A stretch of DNA of 64,000 bases from Bacillota bacterium (GTDB lineage: Bacteria; Bacillota; Proteinivoracia; UBA4975): contig JBMNFF010000001.1 of NCBI GenBank assembly GCA_050949165.1, forward strand, positions 1,059,185-1,123,184, written 5' to 3'. Each line of letters begins with the position of its first letter. Position 1 is the first letter of the stretch. The position numbers were made by a program, and so were the translations under genes. The notes under the pieces were generated by a model. It made no database searches. It saw nothing but the letters and a program-made list of their open reading frames with translations, and was not told the DNA's origin. This document shows positions 16,172 through 56,909 of this stretch, piece after piece.

Positions 16172-16482
16172 TAAAACTTACCTCCAAAAATGATGTAGCT
16201 TGTAAAGCTCGATTCATCCTACCATAGTAAAAAGGCCAATGTCAATTTTACCGAAAAAACTGTCAATGAAGTCCGACAGCTGACCTGGTCTTTGCCCCCA
16301 CACTCGCCTGCTGGAGGGTTCGCGCTAACTACTGCCTCTCTCGGTTTTCCCGGCAGGACTTACTTCTAAGCCGCACCATGCTCGGCAGTTGGTTTTTTTT
16401 GCTGCCTTACGTGGGTCGTTTCGCCTGCGACTGGCCTCGACTTTCAACCACAGACCTGTCAGACATCATTAGAGTAACGTAT

Positions 16483-20914: not shown

Positions 20915-22105
20915 TTATTCTTCCAGTCCTGCCTCCCGGCGCAGCACCTCGGCCTTGTCGGTCTTTTCCCAGGGCAGGTCCAAGTCGGTGCGGCCCATGT
21001 GGCCGTACGCAGCGACCTGCCGGTAGATGGGGCGGCGCAGGTTCATGTCCCGGATGATGCCGCCGGTGCTGAGGTCAAAGTGCTTGGCAATCAGCTCTTC
21101 TATCTTGGCATTGGGCACCTTGCCGGTGCCGAAGGTCTCCACGCTGATGGAAACCGGCTGGGCCACGCCAATGGCATAGGCCAACTGCACTTCGCACTTG
21201 TCGGCCAGGCCGGCGGCCACCACATTCTTGGCAACCCAGCGGGCAGCATAGGCCCCGGAGCGGTCCACCTTGGTGGGGTCCTTGCCCGAGAAGGCGCCGC
21301 CGCCGTGGCGGGAATAGCCGCCGTAAGTATCCACGATGATCTTGCGCCCGGTGAGTCCGGCATCCCCCTGGGGTCCTCCCACCACAAAGCGGCCGGTGGG
21401 GTTTATGTAGTACTTGGTCCCGGCATCCAGGAGGTCGGCGGGGATGGACTTCTTGACCACTTCTTCGATGATCTCCTCCCGCAGCCGCTCCAAGGGAATA
21501 TCCGGCTTGTGCTGGGCCGAAACCACCACGGTGTGGACCCGGGCAGGCTTGCCGTCGATATATTCCACGGTGACCTGGGTCTTGCCGTCGGGACGAAGGT
21601 AAGGGAGAATCCGCTCCTTGCGCACCTCGGCCAGGCGCCGGGCCATGGTATGGGCCAAGGCGATGGGCATGGGCATCAATTCCGGGGTCTCAGCGCAGGC
21701 AAAGCCGAACATCATCCCCTGATCCCCTGCCCCCACCTGCTCGCCGTCTTTCTGCTCCCTGGCCTCCAGGGCTGTATCCACCCCCAGGGCGATGTCCGGG
21801 GACTGCTCGTCGATGGCAGTGAGGACGGCGCAGGTATCCCCGTCAAAGCCGTACTTGGCCCGGGTGTATCCGATTTTGCGCACTGTGTCCCGGACCAGGG
21901 AGGGGATGTCCACATAGCACTCGGTGGTAATCTCTCCCGTCACCAGGACCAGGCCGGTGGTGACCATGGTCTCGGCGGCTACCCGGGCATAGGGGTCGGC
22001 TTCTAGTATCGCATCTAAGATGGCATCGGATATCTGATCGGCGACCTTGTCGGGATGGCCCTCGGTAACTGATTCGGAAGTAAACAAGAACCTGTCAGCT
22101 TTCAA
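20915..22105 (-). CDS. metK: S-adenosylmethionine synthetase
   Basis: [19 protein letters not shown] and other MetK motifs; start moved to TTG at 22105 ([11 protein letters not shown]) preceded by GGAGGTG. Confidence 0.95.
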
Positions 22106-22144
22106 TTCCAACACCTCCACAAATATTCTGCTCAAACTGGCAAC

Positions 22145-22266
22145 AAAAAACCCCTTCAGGTTTGAAAGGGTTCGTCACCCCTCATCTGCGGGAATTGGCA
22201 CCGTGCCCCGTGGCCGGTTGCCGGGTTTCATCGGGCCCGCCCCTCCACCTCTCTCGATAAGAGCTC
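22145..22266 (-). ncRNA. SAM-I (S-box) riboswitch with intrinsic terminator, leader of metK
   Basis: minus-strand sequence CTCTTATCGAGAGAGGTGGAGGGGCGGGCCCGATGAAACCCGGCAACC...GGTGCCAATTCC...GCAGA matches S-box consensus; followed by hairpin and TTTTTT. Confidence 0.85.
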
Positions 22267-22427: not shown

Positions 22428-23369
22428 ATGGACAAGGTGCTAATCGGCATCGACCTGGGCGGGACCAACATCCAGGGAGCCGCCGCCAGCGGCGAGGAAA
22501 TCCTGCGCCGGGGCAAGATCGCCACCCGGGCCGCCCTGGGCCCGGAGACAGTGTTGGCGGATATCGCCGCCCTGGCCCTGGAACTGGCCCAGGGCAAAGA
22601 AATTGCCGCCATAGGCTTGGGCGCCCCCGGGCTCCTGGATTTGGAGCGGGGAATCTGCCTCTTCTCAGGCAATTTGCGCTGGCAAGGAGTTGCCCTCACC
22701 CAGCCCCTTTCCGATGAGCTGGGGGCCCCCGTCTTTCTGGACAATGACGTGCGGGTGGCCGCCCTGGGCGAACTGTCCCAAGGCAAGGCCAAGGGCTGCA
22801 AGGACTTTATCTATCTGACGGTGGGCACCGGCATCGGCTCCGGAATCTTCATCGACGGCCGCCTGCTTCGGGGACCCCGCTGGTCAGCCGGGGAAGTAGG
22901 CCATATGATTCTGGACCCCCAGGGCCCCCACTGCACCTGCGGCAGGCAGGGCTGCCTGGAGGCCCTGGCCTCGGCCACGGCCATAGCCCGGGAAGGGCGC
23001 GCCGCAGCGGCAGCGAACCCCGCCAGCCTCCTCAACACCCTGGCCGGCTCCCCCGAGGAAATCGACGCCGCCAAGGTCTTTGAGGCAGCCTCCGCCGGCG
23101 ACCCGGCCGCAAGCCAGGTGGTGGATACCGCCATGAACTGGCTGGGGATAGGCGTGGCCAACCTCATCAACATCTTCAACCCCCGGCTGGTGGTCATAGG
23201 CGGCGGCGTTTCCCTGGCGGGAGAGCAGCTCCTGGCCCCGGTCCGGGCCCAGGTTCAGCGCTACTGCATGGAGGTGCAAAAGGAAACCGTCACCGTCACC
23301 ACCTCGGCCCTGGACGACAGCGCCGGGGTGGCCGGCGCCCTGGAGCTGGCGCGCCGGCGCCTGGGTTGA
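22428..23369 (+). CDS. ROK-family sugar kinase
   Basis: IGIDLGGTN N-terminus, ROK zinc motif CTCGRQGCLE; ATG with GGAGGGAAGG RBS. Confidence 0.8.
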   Translation: MDKVLIGIDLGGTNIQGAAASGEEILRRGKIATRAALGPETVLADIAALALELAQGKEIAAIGLGAPGLLDLERGICLFSGNLRWQGVALTQPLSDELGAPVFLDNDVRVAALGELSQGKAKGCKDFIYLTVGTGIGSGIFIDGRLLRGPRWSAGEVGHMILDPQGPHCTCGRQGCLEALASATAIAREGRAAAAANPASLLNTLAGSPEEIDAAKVFEAASAGDPAASQVVDTAMNWLGIGVANLINIFNPRLVVIGGGVSLAGEQLLAPVRAQVQRYCMEVQKETVTVTTSALDDSAGVAGALELARRRLG

Positions 23370-23382
23370 GGAGGATAAACCC

Positions 23383-24258
23383 ATGCTCATCAACCCTGCC
23401 CGTCTCTTGGTTAGGGCCAGGGCCCAGGGCCGGGCCCTGGCGGCCTTTAACATCTACAATCTCGAGACCCTCCAGGGAGTGGCCGCCGCCGCAGCCCGGG
23501 CCGGCAGTCCCCTCCTGCTTCAGGCTTCGCCCCGAACGGTGGAATTTGCCGGCGCAGCTTACCTGGTCGCCATGGCCCGGGCCGCCGCCCGCCACTGGCA
23601 GATTCCCGTCGCCCTGCACCTGGATCATGCCAGGGACTTTGATCTGGTTGAGGAATGCCTCAGGGCCGGCTTCACCTCGGTGATGTATGATGGCTCCCGC
23701 CTGCCCCTGCAGGAAAACATCGCCAACACCCGACAGGTGGTGGAACTGGCCGCCCGCTACGGCGCCGCCGTGGAGGGAGAGTTGGGCCAGGTGGGAGGCG
23801 GCGGGTTAAGCCCCGATGACGAACAATACACCGATCCCCAGGAAGCCAGGGAATTTGCCCGGGCCACCGGCGTAGATATGCTGGCGGTGGCGGTGGGAAC
23901 GGCCCACGGCCTCTACCGGGGCGAACCCCATCTGGACTTTGGGCGCCTTGCCGAAATTGCCCGGGAGGTGCCCCTGCCCCTGGTCCTCCACGGCGGCTCC
24001 GGGGTGCCGGCCCCGGCAATTCGCCAGGCCATCGCCCTGGGAATCGCCAAGGTCAATATCGCCACCGAGCTGAAGCTGCCCTTCACCCGCACCCTGGTTC
24101 AGGAGCTGGTCCATCTGGCCGACCGCTCCCCGGAGGAAAGCGATCCCCGCCGGTACATGGCCGCCGCCCGGGAAGCGGTGGAGAAAATCGCCGCCGTCAA
24201 GGTGGCCATGTGTTGGATCCAAACCACCGCAAAGGAGTGCTGCTATGATTCTCAATGA
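23383..24258 (+). CDS. class II ketose-bisphosphate aldolase (tagatose/fructose-bisphosphate aldolase family)
   Basis: LHLDHA and HGGSG metal-binding motifs of class II aldolases. Confidence 0.8.
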   Translation: MLINPARLLVRARAQGRALAAFNIYNLETLQGVAAAAARAGSPLLLQASPRTVEFAGAAYLVAMARAAARHWQIPVALHLDHARDFDLVEECLRAGFTSVMYDGSRLPLQENIANTRQVVELAARYGAAVEGELGQVGGGGLSPDDEQYTDPQEAREFARATGVDMLAVAVGTAHGLYRGEPHLDFGRLAEIAREVPLPLVLHGGSGVPAPAIRQAIALGIAKVNIATELKLPFTRTLVQELVHLADRSPEESDPRRYMAAAREAVEKIAAVKVAMCWIQTTAKECCYDSQ

Positions 24259-25315
24259 CCCCCATGCCCTGCGCCAATTGGACAGCCTGGGTTCTCTGGC
24301 CGCCACCGAAGACTATCCCAGCCAGTTTGCCCTGGGCTTGGAGCTTGCCGCCGACTTCTCCCTGCCCCCCTGCTTTAAGCGGGAGTACCACGAAATCCTG
24401 GTCCTGGGCACCGGCGGCGGCTCCTCCATCGCCGGCGCCCTCCTCACCTCCCTCTTCTTTGACCAGCTGAAGCAGCCGGTAATTATCAACCAGGGATACA
24501 ACATCCCCGCCCATGCCGACAGGGACACCCTGGTCATCGCCCTCTCCCATTCCGGCAACACCGAAGAGATCCTCTCAGCCCTGGGCCAGGCCCGGCGCCG
24601 GGGCTGTCCCGCCCTGGCCATCACCGCCGGCGGCGCCCTGGGGGATATTTGCCGGACCGAGGACATCCCCCACATCATCGTCCCCCGGGACATCGGCCAT
24701 CCCCGGCGGAACCTGGGCTACATAGTGCCGCCCCTGGTCCTGGCCCTGGCCCAACTGGGCCTGGTCCCGGACATCTCCGCCGACATCCGGGAGGCCATTG
24801 CCCTGATGGCGGATCTCAAGAACCAGTACGGCGTCGACACTCCCCTGGAGCAGAACCCGGCCAAGCAGCTGGCCGCCAGGCTCCGGGGTCACATCCCCCT
24901 GATCTACGGTTCCAGCGATTACCTCCAGGCCCCGGCCTGGCGCTGGAAGAACCAGTTCGGCGAGAACGGCAAGCTGATGGCCTTCTACAACCTCATCCCC
25001 CACCTCCACCACGATGAGGCGGTGGGCTGGGATATGGAGCCGGAGTTGCTGCGCCATTTCTTCTTAATCATACTCCGGGATGACCAATTGGACCTTCCCA
25101 AGGTCCAAAAGCGCAAGGAAATCACGGCCCAGATGCTGAGGGAGCGCATGGGGGGGGTAGAAGAAGTCTGGGCCCAGGGCCGGTCCCGCTTTGCCCGCCT
25201 CTTCTCCCTCACCTACCTGGGGGACTTTGTCAGCCTGTATGTGGCGGCAGTCCGGGGCATCGACCCCACCCCCGTGGCGATCATCAACCTCTTTAAGGAG
25301 AAGATGGGCCAGTGA
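24245..25315 (+). CDS. SIS-domain sugar-phosphate isomerase (bifunctional PGI/PMI-like)
   Basis: LGTGGGSSIAG and SHSGNTEE SIS motifs; start overlaps aldolase stop. Confidence 0.7.
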   Translation: MILNDPHALRQLDSLGSLAATEDYPSQFALGLELAADFSLPPCFKREYHEILVLGTGGGSSIAGALLTSLFFDQLKQPVIINQGYNIPAHADRDTLVIALSHSGNTEEILSALGQARRRGCPALAITAGGALGDICRTEDIPHIIVPRDIGHPRRNLGYIVPPLVLALAQLGLVPDISADIREAIALMADLKNQYGVDTPLEQNPAKQLAARLRGHIPLIYGSSDYLQAPAWRWKNQFGENGKLMAFYNLIPHLHHDEAVGWDMEPELLRHFFLIILRDDQLDLPKVQKRKEITAQMLRERMGGVEEVWAQGRSRFARLFSLTYLGDFVSLYVAAVRGIDPTPVAIINLFKEKMGQ

Positions 25316-26241
25316 TCCTCAGCATCTGCCTCAACACTTCTCTGGACACCCGCTACACCGCGCCCGGCTTTAAAAAGGGCGGCATCCACAGCGTGGCCCC
25401 GCCCAGCGTCACCGCCGGGGGCAAGGGCCTCAACCTGGCCCGGGTGGCGGCCCAGTTGGGCGCCTCCGTCACCGCCCTGGGCCTGGTGGGGGAAAGAGAC
25501 CTGGACTTCTTTACCCAAGCCATGGAGGCCGAAGGGGTGAGCCCCCGTTTCACCCCCCTCCCCTCCCCCAGCCGGCGCTGCCTCAACATCATCGACCCCG
25601 ATACCAAGAGCGTCACCGAAATCCTGGAGCAGGGCTACCCCGCCCGGCAGGAACACTTTCAGAGCCTCCTCAGTCAGGTGGAAGCAATGGCCCCCCAGGC
25701 AGCGGTTATCGCTGCCAGCGGCAGCGTTCCCCCGGGGTTGGACCCCGACGTCTATGCCCAACTGGGCGAGCTGGCCCGGCGCCTTGGCAAGCCCTTTGTC
25801 CTGGACGCCCGGGGCCGGCACCTTCAAGAAGGGCTCAAGGGCCGCCCCTTTGCCGTCAAGCCCAACCGAAGGGAACTGGAAACTTGGGCAGGGGCGCCCC
25901 TGGAGACGGATGCGGACATCGCCGCCGCCCTCTTGCGGCTGGCCCAAGCCGGCGTGGCCCTGGCCACCGTCAGCCTGGGGGCGGAGGGCGCCATGGCCGC
26001 CGCCCAGGGCAAGCTCTGGCTGGCCCGCCCGCCCCGGGTAGAGGTCGTAAACCCCGTGGGGGCAGGGGATGCCTTCGCCGCCGGCCTCTGCGTAGCAATA
26101 ACCCGGAATCTCAGCTTGCCCGAAACCCTGGCCCTGGCCGTAGCCAGCGGCGCCGCCAGCGCCATGCATCCCGAGACCGGCCATGTGGACATAATGCGCC
26201 TGGAGCAGCTGCTGCCCCAGGTAGAGATCACCGAAATCTAA
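25312..26241 (+). CDS. PfkB-family sugar-phosphate kinase (1-phosphofructokinase/tagatose-6-phosphate kinase-like)
   Basis: GGKGLN and C-terminal GAGDAF motifs of ribokinase/PfkB family; start overlaps upstream stop. Confidence 0.8.
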   Translation: MILSICLNTSLDTRYTAPGFKKGGIHSVAPPSVTAGGKGLNLARVAAQLGASVTALGLVGERDLDFFTQAMEAEGVSPRFTPLPSPSRRCLNIIDPDTKSVTEILEQGYPARQEHFQSLLSQVEAMAPQAAVIAASGSVPPGLDPDVYAQLGELARRLGKPFVLDARGRHLQEGLKGRPFAVKPNRRELETWAGAPLETDADIAAALLRLAQAGVALATVSLGAEGAMAAAQGKLWLARPPRVEVVNPVGAGDAFAAGLCVAITRNLSLPETLALAVASGAASAMHPETGHVDIMRLEQLLPQVEITEI

Positions 26242-26243
26242 AG

Positions 26244-26315
26244 CGCGACAGCGGGGACGCTACAGATTGTCGCACCCCCGGCGGCCGCGACAGGCCGAAG
26301 CGTCCCAGATGTCGC
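26244..26315. repeat. paired-hairpin element related to 9362-9444 (CGCGACA..GGGGACGC..TGTCGC and CGCGACA..GCGTCCC..TGTCGC)
   Basis: two 30-bp halves at 26244-26273 and 26286-26315 in the PfkB-GH36 intergenic gap. Confidence 0.6.
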
Positions 26316-26333
26316 AGACGGGAGGTTTAGAGA

Positions 26334-28322
26334 ATGCAATTTGGCAAAGCCCGCCTCAGCTTCCGCGACGCAGGGAGGGCAGAGACAGTGACCTTCTCTG
26401 ACCTGAGCTGCAGCCACCCCCGGCTGCAGGTCTCCCCTCACCTGCAAAAACTCCGCCACGGCGCCGTCCTCACCTTGACCCTGACCGCTTCCGAGCCGGT
26501 GGAACTGGAAGAATTCATCCTGGAGGCCCAGCTTCCCAAGGGGAATATGCTCAGCAACGGTTACCAATCCTGGTCCCGAACCAAGCTCTACCGCCCCGAC
26601 CAATATATGGCTCCCCTCTTCGCCCTGGCCCGGCCCCTGCTCAGTCCTTACGGGGATTACTCCCTGATTCGGCGCAGCGGCCGCCGCGGCCATTTCTTTT
26701 CCTGGTCCTGGACAGGCTTTGAGCAGGAGGGCAACTGGTTCTTGCTGGGTTCCGACGCCGAAGACTGGGGATACACCCTCTTTGAGGTCGATGGACGCCA
26801 GGAAAAACTCTATATCCGCCGGGACTGCCAGGGCGAAATAACCTCGTCCTACCCCCTCCTCCAGCTCTACTACGGCTGGGGCGGTGAAGGTGAGGTGTGG
26901 GATGAATATGCCTCCCTGCTGACCCGCCGACGTCCCAACGCCCGGCGCTGCACCGGCTGGACCAGCTGGTACAACTACTATACAAAGATCGACGAGGAGA
27001 TCATCCTGGACAACCTCCGGGCCCTTTCGACCTCGGGGCACCCCTTCCAGATCTTCCAAATCGACGACGGCTGGCAGGAGGCCATCGGCGACTGGCTGGA
27101 TATCAACGCAAAATTCCCCTCGGGCCTGGCCAGCCTCGCCCGGACAATTCGCCAACGGGGTTTCCGCCCCGGCCTGTGGCTTTCCCCCTTCATTTGCGAT
27201 AAAAAATCCCGCCTGTGGCGGGAGAATTACGACTGGGTCCTCAAGGACGAGAAGGGTCGTCCTGTCAAGGCCGGCTGGAACCCCGGCTGGAATGGCTGGT
27301 TCTACGCCCTGGACTTCTATGCCCCGGGCTTTCAGACCTGGCTCAAGGAGGTCTTTGCCACCATCCTGGACCAATGGGGGTTCCAGATGGTCAAGCTGGA
27401 CTTCCTCTATGCCGTGGCCCTGCGCCCCCACCACGGCCGCTGCCGGGGGCGGATCATGGCCGAGGCCATGGAGTTCCTGCACCAAATCTGTGGAGACAAT
27501 TTCATCCTGGGCTGCGGCGTACCCCTGGCCCAATCAGCGGGCCGGGTGGACTTCTGTCGCATCGGCGCCGACGTGGCCCCCTACTGGGAAGACCGATTCC
27601 TGCGGACGATAGGCTACCGGGAGCGGGTCTCCACCCGCAACTCCCTGGCCAGCACCCTGCACCGGCATATGCTGGACAGGCGGTTCTTCCGCAACGATCC
27701 CGATGTCTTCCTCCTCCGGGACGGCGTCCCCAAGGTCAATGAGAACAAGCTCAGCCTCGCCGAGCGCCATACTTTATTCTTCCTCAACAACCTCCTGGGC
27801 GGCCTGGTCTTCCTCTCGGACCATGTGGGGGAGTACACCCCGGAGCAGCAGGCCCAGCTGGCCGAGATGTTCCCCAGCCTGGAAGCAGAAATAACCCGCT
27901 TCCATTACCAGGGGGAACTGTTTGTAATTGAGTTCCAGGTGGAGGAGCGGGAATACGTCGCCCTGGTAAACTTAAGCCCCAAACCCGCTTACCTCGACCT
28001 ACCCCCGGGCCAGTGGTTCCACCCGGAGCTTAAAGTCTGCACCGGCCACCTGGATTTGCAGCCCCACCAGACCCTCTGCCTGGCCAAGGTCAAGCCCCAG
28101 GCCCAGCCCTATGTGCTGGGGAGCAGCGGCCACCTGTACCCCGGCGCCCAGGTAGAATCCTTTACCCGGGAAGGGGATGGCTGGACCCTGACCCTGAAAT
28201 CCTACTCTTCCCCCCACACCCGGGTCTGGATAGCCCTGCCTGAAGGGATGGAAGAACTGGTGGTCAACGGCACCCGCCCAGAAATCATCCACTGGGGACG
28301 GTTCCCAGTGGCGCAAATCTAA
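26334..28322 (+). CDS. glycoside hydrolase, GH36-like (clan GH-D, alpha-galactosidase fold)
   Basis: QIDDGWQ, GLWLSPF and MVKLDF motifs typical of GH36/GH27 catalytic domain; family assignment by eye. Confidence 0.6.
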   Translation: MQFGKARLSFRDAGRAETVTFSDLSCSHPRLQVSPHLQKLRHGAVLTLTLTASEPVELEEFILEAQLPKGNMLSNGYQSWSRTKLYRPDQYMAPLFALARPLLSPYGDYSLIRRSGRRGHFFSWSWTGFEQEGNWFLLGSDAEDWGYTLFEVDGRQEKLYIRRDCQGEITSSYPLLQLYYGWGGEGEVWDEYASLLTRRRPNARRCTGWTSWYNYYTKIDEEIILDNLRALSTSGHPFQIFQIDDGWQEAIGDWLDINAKFPSGLASLARTIRQRGFRPGLWLSPFICDKKSRLWRENYDWVLKDEKGRPVKAGWNPGWNGWFYALDFYAPGFQTWLKEVFATILDQWGFQMVKLDFLYAVALRPHHGRCRGRIMAEAMEFLHQICGDNFILGCGVPLAQSAGRVDFCRIGADVAPYWEDRFLRTIGYRERVSTRNSLASTLHRHMLDRRFFRNDPDVFLLRDGVPKVNENKLSLAERHTLFFLNNLLGGLVFLSDHVGEYTPEQQAQLAEMFPSLEAEITRFHYQGELFVIEFQVEEREYVALVNLSPKPAYLDLPPGQWFHPELKVCTGHLDLQPHQTLCLAKVKPQAQPYVLGSSGHLYPGAQVESFTREGDGWTLTLKSYSSPHTRVWIALPEGMEELVVNGTRPEIIHWGRFPVAQI

Positions 28323-28464
28323 ACCTGCGACAACAGGGATGTTTCAGATCGTCTCAAAATCCATCTCCGCACGCTCCCGGAACCAGGGAGGTAATCGGCT
28401 CTCGAGACGGCGCCCATAACACAACGGAAACAAATTTGAGACAGGTGCACGCGTCCCCGCTGTA

Positions 28465-29118
28465 TCATTGCGAAGGGAAAAAGTGCTGCATTGCCCTATT
28501 TTTATTTTCTTGTGACAGCTTAGTTATTTCATTGGATCGGTGGATATTATTTAATCTATACCTAACCCAAGCCGGAAATATCTCTTTCATGTCCTGGGCA
28601 TACAAAGAGCCGTCCCTGGGAAACTGTTTCCCGATTACCGTAAATCCGCCGTTGGTTAAATCCACTGTAACCAAACAGGGCATGGATGAACCGCTTTCCT
28701 TCACGACTCTTCCCTGTTGGGGAAAATAAATTTCCTCCAGCACCCAGAGGTAAACCTCCACCTTTTCATCTGAAATAAAAGAGTATCCATAGATTCTAAA
28801 GGATGCAAAGCTTTCTGCATTATCCGATTTGGCATGCCCCGCTGTCAAATATTCCTGAATAACTTTGATATTATCCTCAGCAAAGGACATGTTTCTTTGC
28901 TTGCCAAATAAAGTAATCATTTCACTAACGTTTCTACCCTTTTTCGCAACCTTATAGCCTAGGCCGATGTAAATAATTGCTTCATCAGTATCGGAAGTCC
29001 GAATGCTGAATATCGGATTTTTATTAGCCAGAAATCTGTAATAGTCCACTCCGAATAGTATGGTCCACGCAACCAAAATAACCAGACCAAAGAACAACAG
29101 TTTGCGTTTTAGTAACAA
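28465..29118 (-). CDS. hypothetical membrane-anchored protein encoded in an AT-rich insert
   Basis: 217-aa ORF, TTG start with AAGGGG RBS; N-terminal TM helix; local GC clearly below flanks. Confidence 0.5.
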   Translation of the reverse strand: MLLKRKLLFFGLVILVAWTILFGVDYYRFLANKNPIFSIRTSDTDEAIIYIGLGYKVAKKGRNVSEMITLFGKQRNMSFAEDNIKVIQEYLTAGHAKSDNAESFASFRIYGYSFISDEKVEVYLWVLEEIYFPQQGRVVKESGSSMPCLVTVDLTNGGFTVIGKQFPRDGSLYAQDMKEIFPAWVRYRLNNIHRSNEITKLSQENKNRAMQHFFPSQ

Positions 29119-29144
29119 TTATATTTCCCCTTAATCATTAGATA

Positions 29145-29168
29145 TGGCCAAGAAATATTTCTTGGCCA
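29145..29168. promoter_or_regulatory. 24-bp perfect palindrome TGGCCAAGAAATATTTCTTGGCCA upstream of the AT-rich-island gene
   Basis: about 27 nt upstream of the TTG start at 29118; candidate operator or terminator. Confidence 0.4.
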
Positions 29169-29400
29169 CTAGCCTCTATCTTCTAACCCTAGCGTACTTA
29201 GGGATATTGTTCTCCCAGCCGTTTACGGAACTACTTGTCCAAGCATGATAGTTGCTAGTGTGTTGAGCTACCTTATAGTCATAATAAGTTTTCCAGAATA
29301 TTGTACTCCTTATTATTTTATAATTTAACTATATTGCTACTTGATTAACATTTCAAGTATTTATATACAATAAATTTTTGTTTTAAAAGGAGGCATTGAA

Positions 29401-30735
29401 ATGTCCACCCTGGTAAAACCCCGCATGACCACCCGCGATAAGATCACCCTGGCCATCCTGGTCCTGATGTCTGTCTTCCTCTATGCCGACATGAACGCCA
29501 TCACTCCCGTGGTCACCGACATCATGGCCGAGTACGGCATCAGCGAAAGCGACATCGGCCTGGTGGGCTCGGCCTTCACCCTGATTGGCGCCATCGTCAG
29601 CATCGTCTTCGGCTTCCTGGCCGACCGCACTTCCCGCAAATGGCTGCTGGCCTTTGTGGTCCTGGTGGGGGAAATCCCCTGCTTCCTCACCGGCATCAAG
29701 TTCTTCACCCAAACCTATGAGCAGCTTCTCTTCCTGCGGATTTTGACCGGTCTGGGAGTGGGCGGCATCTTCCCCATCACCTTCTCCCTCATCGGCGACT
29801 ACTTCCACGCCCATCACCGCCCCATGGCGACGGCCTTTGTGGGAGCGGCCTGGGGCATCGGCGAAATTGCCGGCAGCATTATCGCTGGCTTCCTGGCCGG
29901 CCCCTACGGCTGGCGCCTGCCCTTCATCGTCGCCGCCGCCCCCAACTTCCTCCTGGTGCCCCTCTTCCTCCTCATCGCCAAGGAACCGGCCCGCGGCGCC
30001 CAGGAAGAGCAAGTCCAGGAACTCATGGCCCAGGGCATCGAGTACAACGAAAAGATCCGCCTCAAAGACCTCAAGTACGTCCTCACCAACAAGACCAATA
30101 TCCTGGGCTACCTCCAGGGAGTCCCCGGCTCTCTGCCCTGGGGCATCCTACCCTTCTACCTCATCGCCTATTACGAGGTTGTCCAGGGCTTCAGCAAGGA
30201 AATGGGCACCACCATCTTCTTCCTCTTCGGCGTTGGCGCCACCATCGGCGGCATCCTGGGGGGTTGGCTGGGCCAGGTTGTTTACAAAAAGGACCCCCGC
30301 TACATGCCCCTGCTGGCCGGCGGCACCGTCCTGGCCGGCATCATCCCTACCATGTTCCTCCTCAACATCTCCTGGCCCACCGACCCCGGACTGGTGGACT
30401 GGCTGCTGCCGGTGGCCTTTGCTATCTTTTCCGGAGCCCTGATCACCATTGCCGGGCCCAATATCAAGTCCATCCTCCTCAATGTCAACCCGCCGGAGCA
30501 CCGGGGTACCGTCTTTGCCCTCCACAATATCTTCGACTCTATCGGCAAGGGCGTGGGCCCCTTCATCGGCGGTCTCCTCATCACCAAAATTGGCTACACC
30601 TTCACCGTGTATTTTTCCGCCCTGATGTGGATCCCCTGCGGCCTCATCTTCCTGGCCATCTACTGGACCATCAGGAAGGACATCGACTATGTCAATCGCT
30701 ACCTGGACGAAAAAGCGGCCAAGCTGGCCGGGTGA
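29401..30735 (+). CDS. MFS transporter
   Basis: 444 aa, 12 predicted TM helices, MFS signature RxxRK-like loop between TM2 and TM3; AAAGGAGG RBS. Confidence 0.85.
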   Translation: MSTLVKPRMTTRDKITLAILVLMSVFLYADMNAITPVVTDIMAEYGISESDIGLVGSAFTLIGAIVSIVFGFLADRTSRKWLLAFVVLVGEIPCFLTGIKFFTQTYEQLLFLRILTGLGVGGIFPITFSLIGDYFHAHHRPMATAFVGAAWGIGEIAGSIIAGFLAGPYGWRLPFIVAAAPNFLLVPLFLLIAKEPARGAQEEQVQELMAQGIEYNEKIRLKDLKYVLTNKTNILGYLQGVPGSLPWGILPFYLIAYYEVVQGFSKEMGTTIFFLFGVGATIGGILGGWLGQVVYKKDPRYMPLLAGGTVLAGIIPTMFLLNISWPTDPGLVDWLLPVAFAIFSGALITIAGPNIKSILLNVNPPEHRGTVFALHNIFDSIGKGVGPFIGGLLITKIGYTFTVYFSALMWIPCGLIFLAIYWTIRKDIDYVNRYLDEKAAKLAG

Positions 30736-30744
30736 GGTGATAGT

Positions 30745-32046
30745 ATGAAGGGTTTTGAGCTGGGACAGGATTTCCTCCTGGGCACCGCCACCGCCGCCCT
30801 CCAGATCGAAGGGGGCGACCGCAAAAACAACTGGTACCGTTGGTGCGAACAGGGCAGAATCAAGGACGGGGCTCACTGCCTCCGGGCCAATGACCATTAC
30901 AACCGGGTGGAAGAAGACATCGCCCTGATGCAGGCCATGCACAACGAAACCTATCGCCTGGGCCTGGAATGGAGCAGAATTGAGCCCGCTCCCGGCCAGT
31001 GGAGCCAGGAAGGCCTGGACCATTACCGCCGGGAGCTGGAACTGCTCCTGGCCGCTGGCATCACTCCCCTGGTCACCCTCCACCACTTCTCCCACCCCCT
31101 CTGGTTCGAGGATATGGGGGGCTGGGAAAATAGCCAATCTCCCGAACTCTTCCGTCGCTTTACCCGCACCGTGGTGGAAAATTTGGGCGACCTGGTCCAG
31201 GATTGGATTACCATCAATGAGCCCAATGTCTACGCCATGGGTAGCTTCCTCACCGGGGAATGGCCCCCGGGCAAGAAGAGCATCCCTGCGTACTTCCGGG
31301 TCCTGAAGAACATGGTCCTGGGCCACATCCTGGCCTATCAGGAAATCCATGCCATCCGCAAGGCCCAGGGCTTCCCGGGTCCCACCCGGGTGGGCGTGGC
31401 CAACCACATCCGGGTCTTCTCCCCCGAGGACAATGCCCTGGCCCGCGGCGCCGCCCGTCGCCTGGACTACCTCTTTCATACCATGGTGGTCCGGGGCATG
31501 GTGGAAGGCAAGCTCTCCTTCCCCCTGGGAACCGGGGGCTACCCCCTGGGTAAGGGGTTCTATATGGACTTCTTTGGCCTCAACTACTATTCCCGGGACA
31601 TCGTGGCCTTCTCCTGGAAAAACCCCGGCATGCTCTTCGCTCAGCTCAGGACCGACCCCACCCTTCCTAAGAACGATCTGGGCTGGGATATCTATCCCGA
31701 GGGCTTGTACAGCATCTGCAAGGAGTATTATCAGCGGTACAAGGTCCCCATCTACATCACCGAAAACGGCATCTGCGACGCCGACGATGATCAGCGCCCA
31801 AGCTACATCTACCGCCACCTGGAGCAGGTGGCCCGGCTCCGCCAAGAGGGGATCCCCGTGGAGCGCTACTACCACTGGACCCTGATGGACAATTTCGAAT
31901 GGGCAGAGGGTGAGAGCGCCCCCTTCGGCCTCATCCACTGCAATTTCGAGACCCAGGAGCGCACCATGCGCGAGAGCGGCCGCTTCTATGGGGAAATCTG
32001 CCGCCGCAAGGCAGTGACCCAGGAGATGATCGAGAAATATCTATAG
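30745..32046 (+). CDS. glycoside hydrolase family 1 (beta-glucosidase/6-phospho-beta-glycosidase family)
   Basis: TINEP (acid/base) and ITENG (nucleophile) GH1 motifs. Confidence 0.85.
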   Translation: MKGFELGQDFLLGTATAALQIEGGDRKNNWYRWCEQGRIKDGAHCLRANDHYNRVEEDIALMQAMHNETYRLGLEWSRIEPAPGQWSQEGLDHYRRELELLLAAGITPLVTLHHFSHPLWFEDMGGWENSQSPELFRRFTRTVVENLGDLVQDWITINEPNVYAMGSFLTGEWPPGKKSIPAYFRVLKNMVLGHILAYQEIHAIRKAQGFPGPTRVGVANHIRVFSPEDNALARGAARRLDYLFHTMVVRGMVEGKLSFPLGTGGYPLGKGFYMDFFGLNYYSRDIVAFSWKNPGMLFAQLRTDPTLPKNDLGWDIYPEGLYSICKEYYQRYKVPIYITENGICDADDDQRPSYIYRHLEQVARLRQEGIPVERYYHWTLMDNFEWAEGESAPFGLIHCNFETQERTMRESGRFYGEICRRKAVTQEMIEKYL

Positions 32047-50403: not shown

Positions 50404-51399
50404 TTAATTGCTGAGTTCCGCCCTAAGCTGCAAGACCTCAGATATGGGAAGCTCAGACACTTGCGCCACTTGCTCAGGAGTAAATCCCAGCCGGAGCGCA
50501 TTTCTGGCTGCTAGTCTCTTTGCCTCCAGAATCCCTTCAGCCCTGCCCTCTGCCCTGCCTTCTGCCCTGCCTTCAACCCGGTACTTCTGCCAGGTTTCCT
50601 GCAAGATTCGTTCAAAATTAGTTATCAATGATTTTCCCCCCTTCCTTCTCAAATGGATCAGGACTCGATCACGGTCGTGTTTCTCCATTCCCTTTAAGAG
50701 TACCTTACCTGTCCACCTAGAAAAACGCCGTACATCTTCTTCCGGCATCTGATCCAAGACTGCAGCAAGCTCACCGATTCCAAACAGCACCTCATCCATC
50801 CCTCTGTGTTGCTCCATATAGAAGACACTACCCATCAAATTGCCCAGGGCAAGCAGCTGGCCCTTGCCATATCTATTTACATCAACGAGGATGTATTTAA
50901 AATCTAATGCGTATTTGCTAAAGAACTGAAATCCTGCCTGACATTGGCTAAAGCTTGTCCCCGCCGTCCATTTGCCTTTCCCATTGTATAGCACGCACGG
51001 GACAATAACCGGCAGAGCGAAACTCCCTTTACAGGCAACCTCATTGAACCAATAATTGCGCCAGATTTCCACCATATACATCAATAAACGAAAGGGCATC
51101 ATTTGATCGACGGTAGATTGCAATTCCAGCAAGAGATAGAAGTATACATCTTGCTCGGCCAAACGAAGCCTGTAGATCAGATCGGCCTCTTGGTGCCGAA
51201 AGTCCTGTAGTATAAAGGATTTTGGAATAAGCATTACGTCTTTCGCCTGAATGCCCTTGACCCACTCTGCCTTAACAAAGGTCTGCAAGAATTGCAGAAA
51301 GGTCGACTTATTGGCCAGCAAATACTTGTACCCCGTATCATGCTTATTGCTGGGGACCGCATATTCCTGGTCTGGCTCCCTAACCAAGGCTAAGGACAT
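50404..51399 (-). CDS. Rpn-family (YhgA-like, PD-(D/E)XK) recombination-promoting nuclease / putative transposase
   Basis: N-terminal HDxxYKxL and nuclease core pattern, C-terminal repeat-containing domain (EGRA x3-4 then LGFTPEQVA...LP) as in E. coli Rpn proteins; start moved to MSLALV at 51399. Confidence 0.7.
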   Translation of the reverse strand: MSLALVREPDQEYAVPSNKHDTGYKYLLANKSTFLQFLQTFVKAEWVKGIQAKDVMLIPKSFILQDFRHQEADLIYRLRLAEQDVYFYLLLELQSTVDQMMPFRLLMYMVEIWRNYWFNEVACKGSFALPVIVPCVLYNGKGKWTAGTSFSQCQAGFQFFSKYALDFKYILVDVNRYGKGQLLALGNLMGSVFYMEQHRGMDEVLFGIGELAAVLDQMPEEDVRRFSRWTGKVLLKGMEKHDRDRVLIHLRRKGGKSLITNFERILQETWQKYRVEGRAEGRAEGRAEGILEAKRLAARNALRLGFTPEQVAQVSELPISEVLQLRAELSN

Positions 51400-51524
51400 A
51401 GTAGCCGCCGCCTTAATAATAATGTTAGCACAGTTTCCAATAATATAATATAGGAACACGTGTTCCCTGTCTAGCTTATCTTTTCTCTGATGGTAGCAGA
51501 AATAGAGTCTCCAATTAAGCGGGT

Positions 51525-51773
51525 GGGGCTGTCGCAAAATGAGATATTCGTACATATTCTCCCGAAAATCTCTCCGGGTAGGGGCCGAAAGTATAAAGAA
51601 GGAGCTGTCGCAAAACTAAATCTCCGCGCATATTACCTCAAGAAAATCTCTGTGGGTGGGGGCCAAAAGATCCCCCTATAAAGGTAATCCAATGTAGGGG
51701 CGGGTTTTCCCGCCCGACTCACAAGAATGGCTAATTGGGGAATATGGCGGATTGCCAGTTTTGCGACAGCCCC
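51525..51773. mobile_element. MITE-like element bounded by inverted GGGGCTGTCGCAAAA(T/C) termini, with internal partial duplication
   Basis: left terminus 51525-51541, internal direct copy 51601-51616, inverted right terminus 51758-51773; no ORF. Confidence 0.55.
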
Positions 51774-51779
51774 TTGCTT

Positions 51780-53702
51780 TTACGCCAAGGCCTTTTCTAT
51801 TTCCGCCATGGCCCTTTCCTCCAGGTCGCAGCATTGCCGGACCAAGGCGAGGACCGCCGGAGCCTTGCCAGGGTCAAAGGCCTGGCCCCCGGGCCCGGTA
51901 AAGGGGACCAAGCGGGTTATCTCCTGGTAATTCGCTGCCACCTGGCGGTAGAGGTCAATTGTACCCTCCAGGCCCTTTAGTTCACCGGACCGGGCGGCAA
52001 CATACTCCAGGTATTTGGCGATGCAGGCCTTGGAGTCAGCATAGACGTTGAGATTATAGGCCAGGCCGAAGGGGTCGTAATCTCCCCGTTCCAAAGTGCT
52101 TATGAGATTGGCATAGGCCTTTCTGCCGCAGGCATACCCGGGAGTCGAGTGCTGCTCTTTATTCCACTCCCTCAAGCCGTATTCCAGGGAATCCCGATAG
52201 ATCTTCTCCGGGTCGACCTCCACCCTGCCCTTGAGAATCTGCACAAACAGGTATGGAACCTCGGATATGCCCAGGTTGCCATAGCTCAAGGGATCCGGAT
52301 CTGAGTTGAGGCAATCTTGAACAAACAAAACTTCATCGCCGTCATCATAACCGTCAATCAGGCCAAATTCCAGGAGACCTGTCGGCGCCCAGGTGATCGC
52401 CGGCACCCCCCTGGCTATGGATGCTTTGATCTTTGCCAGGGCATCCTCCTGAATCATATGGAAAGTGTTGAGCCTGGGGTCCCTGAAGACCAGGACTATT
52501 TCGCTGTGCACGCCAATCCTGTCCAGCATGGTGAAATGCTCCATCCCCCAGTCGTACACCGTCACCGAGCTGGGGCAGGCCGTTTCGTGCACGATGAAGT
52601 GAAAGGCCATCCCCGTCATGCCCATGAGTTTATAGATCTCGTCCTGCCACCACTCCACCTTGCGCAAAGCGCCGTCCACGCTGGCGATATATGAGTTCCA
52701 GGTCATTCCCATCTTCGCACCCAGTCGCATTGCCGCATCAGTACCTCCTTTAACAGGTTGTGGCTCCATTATAATCGACGGGGTAGGACATAAAGTGTCG
52801 CACCCCTCAGGCATATTTGCCAAAATCATCTTTTGTAGCCTGGAACAGAAGCGCTGCCGTAACCAGCGGGGTGAAAGAAGGGTAAATTGTTCTACCCCGG
52901 CTATAATTGCCGCCAGAAATTTGCTGGAATTTGTGAATTCCACTCTGTAGACCTGAGGCTCTCCAGAGGGAGATACCCGCAGCCCCGCCTTTCTCAACTG
53001 ATTCTCCCCCTGGGTTTTTACAAGGGCCACATAAGGCCTGCGGTAGTTAAAGTCATCTTTATATTCCTCCGGATCAAACCAGGGAACGATGGTAAACTCC
53101 TCGTCCCGAACCAGGGCGCCTCTTATCCGCTCCAGTTTAAAGATGCGGACCTCCCCGCGGAGTTCACAATACCCGACCACATAATTGCCATCCCCCTGAC
53201 AGAAGAATTTATAGGGGCAGATGATCCTGCGGGATTTTACCCCCGCGGCGCTGACATACTCTATCTCAACTTTATGCCTCGATTGCATGGCTTTGCTGAG
53301 GAGCTTATATGCCCTGACCTCCCGGGGACCGGGATTGATAATTGGTAAATTCCTCTCGCCTTCGCAGTTTCCTTCCCCGCCCAAGCGGGCAAAGAGTTGG
53401 GCCAACTGCCGGGCCTGTCCACCTTCCCTGTTTCGGTAGTGGAAGGCCAGGTAATCCAGGGTGGCCTTTTCTTCTGCCGAAATAAAATTGGCCGGCAGGA
53501 TAAAAGCTCCCCCTCGGTAAAAATACCCGTTGTTCCTGGGACAATATGCAACGGGCGCCCCCAGGGAGTAGCGCAAGTACTCAATATCCCGGGAAGCCTG
53601 GCGGGTAGAAATCTCAAATTCCTCGGCAATAATTCGGCAATTGGGATACCTGCCATGGCGAATCTGCTGGTCAATCCAGAGTATCCTGTGTAAGCTGCTC
53701 AT
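51780..53702 (-). CDS. HTH-WYL domain regulator fused to about 340-aa uncharacterised C-terminal domain
   Basis: N-terminal HTH (NCRIIAEEFEISTRQASRDIEYL), WYL-type beta domain (RRIICPYKFFCQGDGNYVVGYCELRGEVRIFKLERI), continuous 640-aa ORF; ATG with GGGGGTGA RBS. Confidence 0.65.
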   Translation of the reverse strand: MSSLHRILWIDQQIRHGRYPNCRIIAEEFEISTRQASRDIEYLRYSLGAPVAYCPRNNGYFYRGGAFILPANFISAEEKATLDYLAFHYRNREGGQARQLAQLFARLGGEGNCEGERNLPIINPGPREVRAYKLLSKAMQSRHKVEIEYVSAAGVKSRRIICPYKFFCQGDGNYVVGYCELRGEVRIFKLERIRGALVRDEEFTIVPWFDPEEYKDDFNYRRPYVALVKTQGENQLRKAGLRVSPSGEPQVYRVEFTNSSKFLAAIIAGVEQFTLLSPRWLRQRFCSRLQKMILANMPEGCDTLCPTPSIIMEPQPVKGGTDAAMRLGAKMGMTWNSYIASVDGALRKVEWWQDEIYKLMGMTGMAFHFIVHETACPSSVTVYDWGMEHFTMLDRIGVHSEIVLVFRDPRLNTFHMIQEDALAKIKASIARGVPAITWAPTGLLEFGLIDGYDDGDEVLFVQDCLNSDPDPLSYGNLGISEVPYLFVQILKGRVEVDPEKIYRDSLEYGLREWNKEQHSTPGYACGRKAYANLISTLERGDYDPFGLAYNLNVYADSKACIAKYLEYVAARSGELKGLEGTIDLYRQVAANYQEITRLVPFTGPGGQAFDPGKAPAVLALVRQCCDLEERAMAEIEKALA

Positions 53703-53941
53703 GTTTCACCCCCAGGGAAATGATAGACGTCCCTGCACTGTTCTCAGCCTTCTCCTGCCCGGACAAAGGGCCGGCTGCCAAAGAACAGTTCTGCGCGGGC
53801 GCATCCCAACCTCGGCTCCCCGACCGCTTTTTCCCAGTATAGCATCTGAAAAAATAAATTTCTAATTTGATTTTTATCATGTTTTCCCTTTTCTGGCTCC
53901 TCCATAATGAAGACAGAACAAAGGTGAAGGAGTGTTGAAGG

Positions 53942-54178
53942 ATGAAAAAAATTACCTTGTTAGGAGTTGAAGGGTGCCCCACCTGCGCCCGCCTGGATGC
54001 AAAGGTTCAGGAGGCCGTGGCCGCCCTGGCCGCCCCGGTAGAGGTGGAGAAGATCGCCGATCCCGCGAAAATAATGGAAATCAATGCCGGCGGTCTGCCC
54101 GCCGTGCTCGTCGACGGGGAAGTCAAGGCCCTGCGCCGGGTCCCGGAAGTAAAGGAGCTGGTAGAATGGCTGCAGTAA
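53942..54178 (+). CDS. thioredoxin-fold small redox protein (CPTC active-site motif)
   Basis: 78 aa, GCPTC motif near N-terminus typical of glutaredoxin/thioredoxin-like proteins. Confidence 0.6.
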   Translation: MKKITLLGVEGCPTCARLDAKVQEAVAALAAPVEVEKIADPAKIMEINAGGLPAVLVDGEVKALRRVPEVKELVEWLQ

Positions 54179-54399
54179 AGGTAACCGCCCGTCTGGAACA
54201 ACTGTCCTGCCCCAGCTGCGCCGACATGATTGTCAATGTAGTCCGGAAAATCAAGGGCGTAGAGGAAGCGGAAGTACGCTACACCACCAGCAAGCTGCTG
54301 GTCACCTATGACGACGCTGTTGTAGCCTGGGATGAAATAGAAGATACCGTGACCAAGCTGGGTTACGCCGTTACCGGCAAGAGCGAGAGGAGGGATTAG
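54166..54399 (+). CDS. heavy-metal-associated (HMA) domain metallochaperone
   Basis: 77 aa from MAAVKV; CPSC metal-binding motif in ferredoxin-like fold context; AAGGAG RBS. Confidence 0.65.
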   Translation: MAAVKVTARLEQLSCPSCADMIVNVVRKIKGVEEAEVRYTTSKLLVTYDDAVVAWDEIEDTVTKLGYAVTGKSERRD

Positions 54400-54400
54400 C

Positions 54401-56287: not shown

Positions 56288-56307
56288 GAGCCGCGGGTTC
56301 TTTGCTT
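56273..56307 (+). terminator. intrinsic terminator after P1B-ATPase
   Basis: aagaacccgcg-ttaagagc-cgcgggttctt hairpin followed by TTTGCTT. Confidence 0.7.
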
Positions 56308-56582
56308 ATGGGATAACCCGCTTCCTTCTACATGCTAAGAATAATGACGCCCTGCATGGTGAAAATAGCCTGACGGGTTGACATCCCACCAGCGACGGCA
56401 TGCCAACGGGTAGAGAATGACTATACTCATTCCCGGACCGAACTGCCACCCGCGCCGCTGCGTCACATTTATTGAGCAGAAGCCAGCTGACCTGTTACCC
56501 GTTTGCCAAGCCGATGCATTACCTTGGTAAACCTCTATATAAATATATTAAAATAACTTATTAAAGAAATTAAGGTAAGGGC

Positions 56583-56611
56583 TTGCAAAATAAAATTGAA
56601 CCCTGTATAAT
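56583..56611 (+). promoter_or_regulatory. sigma-70-type promoter TTGCAA-N17-TATAAT with AT-rich upstream tract
   Basis: -35 at 56583-56588, -10 at 56606-56611, AT-rich UP-like region 56530-56580. Confidence 0.6.
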
Positions 56612-56664
56612 TATGGCGGAAGGTAGCGGACATACCAGCGAGACGAAATAAGGAGGTGAATTCC

Positions 56665-56766
56665 ATGAAAGAAACCTTCCCCTATCGCCCCACCGGCCTC
56701 TCCACCGGCAAGGGCAAACCCCCAACCCGTCCCCCCTTTCCCATCCAACTGCTTCCACCCCGGTAA
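56665..56766 (+). CDS. small peptide, 33 aa (MKETFPYRPTGLSTGKGKPPTRPPFPIQLLPPR)
   Basis: ATG 7 nt after AAGGAGGTG; paralogous to next ORF; below ORF-track size cutoff. Confidence 0.5.
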   Translation: MKETFPYRPTGLSTGKGKPPTRPPFPIQLLPPR

Positions 56767-56793
56767 ACCAAAGCCATAAAAGGAGGTAAAACC

Positions 56794-56886: not shown

Positions 56887-56909
56887 AAACCCACTGGGAG
56901 GTGAATTCA

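Follow-up and report, generated by a model that had tools for sequence, protein, structure and literature searches.

A cluster of seven genes in a 64,000-nucleotide stretch of a Bacillota genome (Proteinivoracia, UBA4975; GenBank assembly GCA_050949165.1, contig JBMNFF010000001.1; the whole stretch is called the window here) is read, with moderate confidence, as a galactoside-utilisation operon. Galactose would be degraded by way of galactose-6-phosphate (Gal6P), tagatose-6-phosphate (Tag6P) and tagatose-1,6-bisphosphate (TBP), independently of a phosphotransferase system (PTS) and by enzymes that may also accept glucose. The genes encode a ROK-family sugar kinase, a class II ketose-bisphosphate aldolase, a SIS isomerase, a PfkB-family kinase, a GH36 enzyme, a transporter of the major facilitator superfamily (MFS) and a GH1 enzyme (Table 1). 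The chemistry class of all four steps of the module formed by the first four enzymes follows from family membership; it is genomic context only that suggests galacto rather than gluco stereochemistry.

In the proposed route, the MFS protein would take up a glycoside with an alpha-galactosyl residue and a beta-glycosidic bond, GH36 would strip off alpha-galactose (a class assigned from motifs and homology, with the activity predicted), and GH1, whose class is established and whose substrate is presumed, would cut the remaining beta-glycoside. The ROK kinase would phosphorylate the free hexose at C6, the SIS protein, of the phosphoglucose/phosphomannose isomerase (PGI/PMI) type, would convert the hexose-6-phosphate to a ketose-6-phosphate, PfkB would add a phosphate at C1, and the class II aldolase would split the bisphosphate into dihydroxyacetone phosphate (DHAP) and glyceraldehyde-3-phosphate (GAP). 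An earlier note on this DNA had proposed that a hexose is converted to triose phosphates via a ketose bisphosphate, and by family membership the four enzymes do make up a self-contained route of this kind. Galactose is the most likely hexose, in which case the ROK kinase would replace the PTS, the SIS protein LacAB and the class II aldolase LacD. No PTS domain is found in any cluster gene or flanking gene, in agreement with the same note.

Table 1. Genes of the cluster and features lying among them. Positions are those of the window.
Feature	Positions	Strand	Basis and remarks
ROK-family sugar kinase	22428-23369	+	313 aa from the ATG at 22428; frame open from a TTG at 22386
Class II ketose-bisphosphate aldolase (zinc)	23383-24258	+	Pfam and NCBIfam
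SIS/bact-PGI_C isomerase	24245-25315	+	Pfam and NCBIfam
PfkB-family ketose-phosphate kinase, 1-PFK/LacC/FruK branch	25312-26241	+	NCBIfam and PDB
GH36, predicted alpha-galactosidase of TmGalA/TtGalA type, 662 aa	26334-28322	+	PDB matches and motifs
AT-rich stretch, horizontally acquired insertion	about 28440-29400; core 28474-29301		GC dip, absence in relatives, match to L183
Orphan 217-aa open reading frame with N-terminal hydrophobic segment (predicted anchor)	28465-29118	-	Inside the AT-rich stretch
Sigma-70-like promoter match	29252-29279	+	TTGCTA-16-TATAGT, 9/12 positions, consensus match only
MFS_1 transporter, 12 transmembrane segments	29401-30735	+	Pfam; profile against PDB
GH1 beta-glycosidase, short, non-phospho type	30745-32046	+	Pfam, motifs and alignment

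Genomic context of the aldolase-SIS-PfkB cassette

The context of the module was assessed in about 12 independent loci among the matches listed; matches from metagenomes were mostly distant, stand-alone PGI/PMI genes, and a plasmid search with the SIS protein gave just two distant PGI/PMI matches. Wherever the SIS homologue had at least 47% identity, the aldolase gene lay immediately upstream (contig L095 is too short to show it), PfkB followed downstream nearly always and a ROK kinase was often present, whereas homologues at 30-40% identity stand alone. The aldolase-SIS-PfkB core recurs in Bacillota as a cassette, in most cases together with a ROK kinase, and it is accompanied by regulators of its own, of the DeoR or ROK type.

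The partners of the cassette have a galactose flavour. Brevibacillus brevis (L090, L096) carries DeoR, aldolase, SIS, PfkB, ROK and an EbgA/LacZ-type beta-galactosidase (equivalog cut-offs passed), and in L092 DeoR and the cassette stand with MglB (442.6 bits against a cut-off of 420). An MglB-like ABC system adjoins the cassette in Heliobacterium gestii (L174), and a CUT2 ABC system occurs with DeoR and the cassette in Moorella naiadis (L173). Halothermothrix orenii (L088) combines a ROK-type regulator, the cassette and a CUT2 ABC system with a second PfkB, the sole strong match of which is tagatose kinase (364.9 bits; the next family reaches 174). Caldanaerobius fijiensis (L089) has a ROK regulator, ROK, aldolase and SIS and no PfkB, and in L171 the aldolase, SIS and PfkB genes lie among housekeeping genes.

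In transporter or glycosidase contexts, the aldolases score higher as GatY than as fructose-bisphosphate aldolase (FBA), by 11-44 bits. The GatY subfamily cut-off is passed by the proteins of H. orenii (395.5), M. naiadis (387.3) and H. gestii (399, and 406.4 with a second model).

Near the L171 trio there is also a separate operon (L171/L172, 629-3605) with genes for LacI, a ribulose-phosphate 3-epimerase, an RpiB/LacAB-type isomerase, ROK and PfkB, an arrangement like that of an allose/psicose-type pathway to which a PfkB has been added.

Genomic context of the GH36, MFS and GH1 genes

Eighty GTDB loci with a related GH36 were compared, with neighbours clustered and Pfam run on representatives. 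Galactokinase (GalK) was a neighbour in 7 loci, GalT in 4, phosphoglucomutase in 4, a GPH-type permease in 8 and a TetR regulator in 5. Given the GalK, GalT and phosphoglucomutase neighbours, the product of this GH36 clade is therefore taken to be galactose. Four of the 80 loci (L006, L009, L011, L043), from distant genomes, have a transporter of the window type (39-63% identity) beside GH36 or close to it, and three (L010, L011, L043) have a GH1 of the window type (50-55% identity) directly downstream of GH36; the GH36/MFS/GH1 trio is a unit beyond the window lineage. GalK lies upstream of GH36-GH1 in L011 and L043, the side held by the four-gene module in the window lineage, and the GH36 genes of other phyla, two of them in loci that also have GH1, are associated with GalK/GalT rather than with that module.

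The trio points to a natural glycoside that needs both an alpha-galactosidase and a beta-glycosidase. The earlier note saw a sign of an unusual substrate in the pairing of alpha- and beta-glycosidase-like enzymes with the module; the pairing of the module with the two glycosidases and an MFS protein is conserved in relatives and matches no classical raffinose, melibiose or cellobiose locus. Such a classical locus was rejected because the transporter is of the wrong family, the cluster holds no sucrase (GH32/GH13) and the GH1 is not the standard BGL equivalog.

The same gene order beside metK recurs in four relatives (L083, L085, L086, L091), with GH36 60-72% identical, and so the arrangement is more than chance.

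Two Spirochaetota loci encode a secreted protein of 511-536 aa between TetR and GH36-GH1 (L010, 6988-8598; L011, 7080-8615, where GalK intervenes). Its likeness by eye to a FadL/TodX-type outer-membrane channel came with no Pfam match at E=1 and was not used.

Enzymes of the hexose-to-triose module

The ROK kinase matches Pfam ROK at 245 bits and the ROK glucokinase subfamily TIGR00744 at 230.9 against a cut-off of 260; its best PDB match is glucokinase 2qm1 (2.5e-58), and the motifs ND, ExGH and CxCGxxGC are found. For the aldolase, Pfam F_bP_aldolase gives 313.9 bits and the ketose-bisphosphate aldolase model TIGR00167 is passed. Its best NCBIfam match is the GatY subfamily (318.9, cut-off 383), against 299.3 for class II FBA PRK12857 (cut-off 423) and 276.4 for FBA TIGR01859 (cut-off 343), and the best PDB entry is AgaY 1gvf (3.8e-61), narrowly ahead of the T. 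aquaticus FBA. In Pfam and NCBIfam scans, the cluster had no further gene of the PF01116 or GatZ kind that could be a GatZ/KbaZ partner.

The SIS protein (Pfam bact-PGI_C, 176.9 bits) has PGI/PMI models as its best NCBIfam matches, at 436.5 and 326 bits, the latter being the bifunctional PGI/PMI model NF006426 with a cut-off of 295. It matches the P. aerophilum PGI/PMI 1tzb at 1.3e-12, with the SxSGNT, PR, ENxK and HH motifs aligned. AgaS, to which the earlier note had compared it, was rejected, as the NCBIfam scores favour PGI/PMI: no AgaS model matched, and the GlmS type reached 19.4 bits.

PfkB passes the hexose kinase model TIGR03168 (290.3 bits, cut-off 216). It reaches 267.6 with the FruK equivalog (cut-off 292), 174.5 and 186.4 with the LacC models TIGR01231 (cut-off 409.6) and NF010033 (cut-off 469), and 95.6 with the Escherichia coli Pfk-2 model NF007632 (cut-off 353). 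Its best PDB match is the Staphylococcus aureus tagatose-6-phosphate kinase LacC 2jg1 (3.9e-44), narrowly ahead of 1-phosphofructokinase (FruK), with Pfk-2 at 1e-24.

Glycosidases and transporter

GH36 scores 51 bits with Pfam Melibiase (cut-off 27) and matches the solved structures 6lcj (1.6e-58) and 1zy9 (1.4e-48). The motifs DDGW (244-247), KLDF (354-357) and RIGAD (409-413) align with TmGalA/TtGalA and are invariant in 23 homologues; the aspartate of KxD we take to be the nucleophile and that of RxGxD the acid/base, as D327 and D387 presumably are in TmGalA. By class, the protein would be an alpha-galactosidase. The earlier label "GH36-like" caught the relationship and understated it, for this is a genuine TmGalA/TtGalA-type GH36 in which the catalytic and galactose-binding motifs are intact.

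The GH1 enzyme (Pfam Glyco_hydro_1, 303.6 bits) has NEP at 158, TENG at 339 and MDNFEW near residue 382. It is of the non-phospho type, with Glu in DNFEW and scores of 93-212 bits with the 6-phospho models against their cut-offs of 561-686, and it reaches 319.8 with the standard BGL equivalog (cut-off 478.5). Its closest solved relative is BGPh of P. horikoshii (1vff), with which it aligns near end-to-end, at 37.5% identity over 408 aligned positions with 19 gap positions. Two further solved GH1 entries are nearly equal in E-value (8.6e-81 versus 3.2e-81); it is therefore length and a near-gapless alignment, not score, that support the BGPh assignment. Long-alkyl and steryl glucosides are the preferred substrates of BGPh and related enzymes (PMC4687101).

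The transporter matches Pfam MFS_1 at 188 bits, no NCBIfam model at its cut-off, and neither MFS_2 (GPH) nor LacY. In the PDB, a profile built from nine sequences ranked the Spinster lipid transporters (TC 2.A.1.49) SPNS2 (1.4e-19), SPNS1 (3.9e-19) and HnSpns (4.6e-18) first, with the D-galactonate symporter DgoT (1.1e-17) nearly level with them, and GLUT-type transporters were reached only at about 1e-3, with the single MFS sequence. These matches would place it in an atypical family in the Spinster and anion:cation-symporter neighbourhood, not among sugar porters or GPH-type permeases. Of the "MFS importer" in the earlier note, the family therefore stands and the importer role is an assumption, the protein belonging to no known sugar-transporter family.

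Galactose or glucose as the substrate of the module

The galactose/tagatose reading is preferred because of the galactose-flavoured partners of the cassette, the position of GalK in other phyla, the GatY-leaning aldolases and an argument from redundancy. Brevibacillus presumably has the canonical Embden-Meyerhof-Parnas (EMP) genes. A Heliobacterium relative of H. gestii has a canonical pfkA (PMC2887804), so that a second phosphofructokinase and FBA would be redundant if fructose-6-phosphate were the product. The description of the module as "tagatose-type" in the earlier note thus finds indirect support from context (LacZ, MglB, the tagatose-kinase-like PfkB, GatY-leaning aldolases and GalK/GalT-linked GH36), but the scores cannot separate tagatose from fructose.

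Several points tell against galactose. The ROK kinase is nearest to glucokinases, the SIS protein is nearest to PGI/PMI, PfkB scores higher as FruK than as LacC, and the window aldolase is under every equivalog cut-off; indeed no sequence model separates tagatose from fructose stereochemistry, and all the enzymes fall under the equivalog cut-offs of both. MglB and LacZ likewise deliver glucose, and growth on glucose and fructose is reported for H. gestii, whose cassette is accompanied by an MglB-like importer. PfkB is missing from one of the relatives (L083). In the housekeeping context of L171, the aldolase scores 34 bits higher as FBA than as GatY and is above the cut-off of the FBA equivalog TIGR01859 (364.7, cut-off 343), and the ancestral function of the aldolase-SIS-PfkB trio may be glycolytic. 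A literature search found no ROK kinase making Gal6P and no PGI/PMI acting on it. Nothing was found in the literature searched on a PTS-independent Tag6P pathway either; PMC5816610 draws an analogy between yih and lacABCD and does not treat this cassette.

Ordinary upper glycolysis, the main rival, which we consider possible though on the unlikely side, would account for these points with a glucokinase, a PGI, a PfkB-type 6-phosphofructokinase and an FBP aldolase whose genes are transcribed together with those of the glycosidases, GH1 releasing glucose and GH36 galactose, the latter handled by Leloir enzymes encoded elsewhere. It would agree with a ROK kinase only slightly under the glucokinase subfamily cut-off, with a SIS protein that passes a PGI/PMI subfamily model, with the FruK-like scores of PfkB, with the L171 trio, with the growth of H. 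gestii on glucose and fructose, and with a cluster that lies beside metK in a core chromosomal region (secA, prfB). Against it stand the accessory nature of the cassette, which comes with regulators, and the pfkA of the Heliobacterium relative, as well as partners such as LacZ, MglB, the tagatose-kinase-like PfkB and the alpha-galactosidase. GalK on the module's side of GH36-GH1 in other phyla and aldolases that lean towards GatY in such contexts argue in the same direction.

Use of mannosides or galactomannan oligosaccharides is improbable. GH36 would then take the alpha-1,6-galactose, GH1 would be a beta-mannosidase, ROK a mannokinase and SIS a phosphomannose isomerase, with metabolism going onward from fructose-6-phosphate. 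The SIS protein does fall in a bifunctional PGI/PMI family, GH1 beta-mannosidases occur among the archaeal relatives of BGPh, and an alpha-galactosyl residue paired with a beta-glycoside fits galactomannan fragments. However, no mannanase, GH130, epimerase or oligosaccharide ABC system lies nearby, the LacZ, MglB and tagatose-kinase-like partners of the cassette do not indicate mannose, and PfkB and the aldolase would be superfluous.

Sulfoquinovose-type sulfoglycolysis (a clan GH-D sulfoquinovosidase, SIS acting on sulfoquinovose as a glucose-6-phosphate mimic, PfkB and aldolase as in sulfo-EMP, and an MFS protein moving sulfonates) shares the isomerase/PfkB/aldolase logic of sulfo-EMP, an MFS protein near the anion:cation symporter DgoT and, in L083 and L085, a glycyl-radical enzyme with its activase just downstream, but it was rejected as very improbable because GH36 keeps the DDGW motif for galactose O4/O6 and is GalK/GalT-linked elsewhere, a C6 kinase is present that has no role on a 6-sulfo sugar, and the window has no sulfolactaldehyde reductase or dehydrogenase and none of the glycyl-radical genes.

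Possible substrates and significance of the proposed galactose/tagatose route

The GH36/MFS/GH1 trio might salvage the sugar head groups of amphipathic galactosides, with plant or cyanobacterial galactolipids or their lyso forms as leading candidates, a proposal that we regard as doubtful. The head group of digalactosyldiacylglycerol is alpha-Gal-1,6-beta-Gal-1,3-acylglycerol, and monogalactosyldiacylglycerol is a beta-Gal-acylglycerol. The Spinster-like MFS protein would move a lipid-like glycoside, GH36 would remove the alpha-galactose and GH1 the beta-galactose from the hydrophobic aglycone, and both galactoses would enter the PTS-independent Tag6P route through a ROK galactose 6-kinase, a PGI/PMI-type Gal6P isomerase, PfkB and the class II aldolase. 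The proposal arises from a set of hints, each of them weak: the Spinster relatives of the MFS protein, the BGPh-type GH1, TetR near GH36, and L043, where a Hydrolase_4 alpha/beta-hydrolase (monoacylglycerol-lipase family) and a thioesterase-like DUF4442 protein adjoin the MFS gene. A literature search returned no paper on a bacterial galactolipid gene cluster of this kind. Such a system would be the counterpart of sulfoglycolysis for the sulfolipid sulfoquinovosyldiacylglycerol, and it would tie an enormous carbon pool, the galactolipid head groups, to defined bacterial genes.

Textbooks assign galactose to the Leloir pathway or, in Gram-positive bacteria, to a PTS-fed Tag6P pathway. Entry into tagatose phosphates by a permease and a kinase would give galactose a third route, not recognised so far and assembled from non-orthologous enzymes (ROK, PGI/PMI type, class II aldolase), and the cassette is spread over Brevibacillus, Moorella, Heliobacterium, Halothermothrix, Caldanaerobius and many metagenome-assembled genomes (MAGs) from digesters. 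The names "glucokinase", "PGI/PMI", "1-phosphofructokinase" and "FBP aldolase" would then be mis-annotations, and metabolic models would wrongly predict glycolytic redundancy. Should the enzymes prove specific for the gluco series, this would be a glycoside operon of the usual kind with a copy of upper glycolysis.

Gene arrangement and the AT-rich stretch between GH36 and MFS

Genes were called from a listing of open reading frames together with Pfam and NCBIfam scans, and the seven genes of the earlier note are all present on the plus strand, at the positions and in the order it gave. The cluster proteins correspond to MGI6365199-205 from an uncultured Bacillota MAG. A GGAGG ribosome-binding site precedes the ATG at 22428, which agrees with the public gene call and is most likely the real start of the ROK gene.

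The claim of an operon with overlapping starts holds for the aldolase/SIS and SIS/PfkB junctions, which overlap by 14 nt and 4 nt, and not for the remaining ones, where gaps of 13 nt (ROK/aldolase), 92 nt (PfkB/GH36) and 9 nt (MFS/GH1) were found. Nor is the operon single and uninterrupted in this genome, since an AT-rich insertion of about 1.08 kb, missed in the earlier note, parts GH36 and MFS. Measured per 100 bp, the GC content of this gap ranges over 0.20-0.49, while the flanks are at about 0.6. Relatives of the operon have no such insertion; in them the GH36-MFS spacing is about 30-155 nt and the same AAAGGAGG ribosome-binding site is kept.

The 217-aa open reading frame within it has a GC content at third codon positions of 0.44, against about 0.8 for neighbouring genes. 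It has no Pfam match even at E=1 and only four homologue clusters among 5.8 billion proteins, and in the species of the window it lies between GH36 and MFS in every one of 8 places from different samples. An 834-nt part (28474-29301) is 85.7% identical to an unrelated contig, L183, in which a 77% identical relative of the 217-aa protein adjoins an Amidase_6 gene, a different context. The absence in relatives and the DNA identity to L183 therefore mark the stretch as a recent horizontal insertion, and it is fixed at this site in the species. The sigma-70-like match inside it could be a driver of MFS-GH1.

A perfect 24-bp palindrome (TGGCCAAGAAAT/ATTTCTTGGCCA) lies at 29145-29168, inside the insertion and immediately upstream of where the 217-aa reading frame starts; it might serve as an operator or in recombination.

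In some samples of the species of the window (L175, L176), the gene for GH36, MFS or PfkB is called in pieces or truncated, GH36 for instance as 151 + 519 aa. Such calls may stem from assembly errors at low coverage, or the operon may truly be decaying in some members of the population.

Flanks and other features of the window

Upstream of the cluster lies metK (20915-22135, minus strand), with a SAM-I riboswitch (RF00162, 71.2 bits) in its leader at 22179-22263 on the minus strand. The riboswitch is 165 nt from the ROK start, and the metK leader and the sugar-operon promoter have this short divergent intergenic region in common. Downstream, a histidine kinase, a response regulator and an HtrA protease are encoded on the minus strand, and the long plus-strand open reading frames at 32279 and 34279 are spurious, being shadows of these genes. 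The core chromosomal region from which the window comes likewise encodes secA, prfB and a transketolase subunit.

At the position of the two-component system and HtrA, two of the relatives have a glycyl-radical enzyme and a radical-SAM activase directly downstream of GH1 (L083, 14828-20133; L085, 14840-18065), and L083 additionally encodes a 679-aa protein without a clear family; neither the glycyl-radical genes nor the 679-aa gene occurs in the window. No LacI or AraC regulator was found in the cluster, and the locus in the window has no DeoR gene, while its relative L085 has one.

Elsewhere in the window, a raiA motif RNA lies at 16271-16464 on the minus strand (Rfam RF03072, 182.3 bits against a gathering score of 101.3). 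A stretch of lower GC content (50404-57867; GC 0.52-0.53 at 50-54 kb) next to a P-type ATPase gene contains several open reading frames without a Pfam match and, on the minus strand at 51780-53702, the gene of a 640-aa WYL-domain protein; it may be a further acquired island.

Comparison with known pathways and loci

The intermediates proposed here (Gal6P, Tag6P, TBP, and DHAP plus GAP) are the same as those of the LacABCD pathway, and the second kinase is of the PfkB family in both, LacC being the best solved relative of the window PfkB. Unlike LacABCD with LacG, the window has no PTS or 6-phospho-beta-galactosidase, its GH1 keeping the non-phospho DNFEW, and Gal6P would come from an ATP-dependent ROK kinase. 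LacAB is of the RpiB type and LacD is a class I aldolase, whereas the window has a PGI/PMI-type SIS protein and a class II aldolase (PF01116).

In E. coli Nissle, it is established that tagatose can be used without a PTS by a route that has a class II aldolase and a DeoR regulator (PMC9720028), so the proposal is a variant and not a new principle. The D-tagatose cluster of Nissle 1917 and B2 strains and the GatY/KbaY systems have a class II aldolase of the tagatose-bisphosphate type and PfkB-family kinases in common with the window. In the Nissle cluster, a transporter and a kinase provide entry instead of a PTS, as would be the case here, and its DeoR is matched in relatives (L085, L090, L092, L173). 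Free tagatose enters the Nissle route via an ABC system; in the window, the substrate would be an aldose released by glycosidases, hence the added aldose-6-phosphate isomerase and ROK kinase. Unlike the GatY/KbaY systems, the window has no GatZ/KbaZ partner, and its aldolase remains under the GatY cut-off.

The GH1 enzyme and BGPh are both short, with the same catalytic motifs and a near end-to-end alignment. BGPh is archaeal, membrane-associated and prefers long-alkyl glucosides (PMC4687101), whereas the window GH1 is bacterial and resembles it in sequence.

GH36 has the catalytic TIM barrel and the WxSWY, DDGW, KxD and RxGxD motifs in common with TmGalA (Thermotoga maritima, 1zy9) and TtGalA (Thermus thermophilus, 6lcj). 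It differs from them in its length of 662 aa, with longer N- and C-terminal domains, and its partners are MFS_1 and GH1 rather than Leloir genes or raffinose transporters.

As in the raffinose and melibiose loci (rafABD, melAB, msmEFGK-aga), an alpha-galactosidase is encoded with a transporter. Unlike in these loci, the transporter belongs to none of the GPH, LacY and ABC (MsmEFGK) types and there is no sucrose hydrolase or phosphorylase, and the window adds a GH1 enzyme and a four-step module leading from hexose to triose phosphates.

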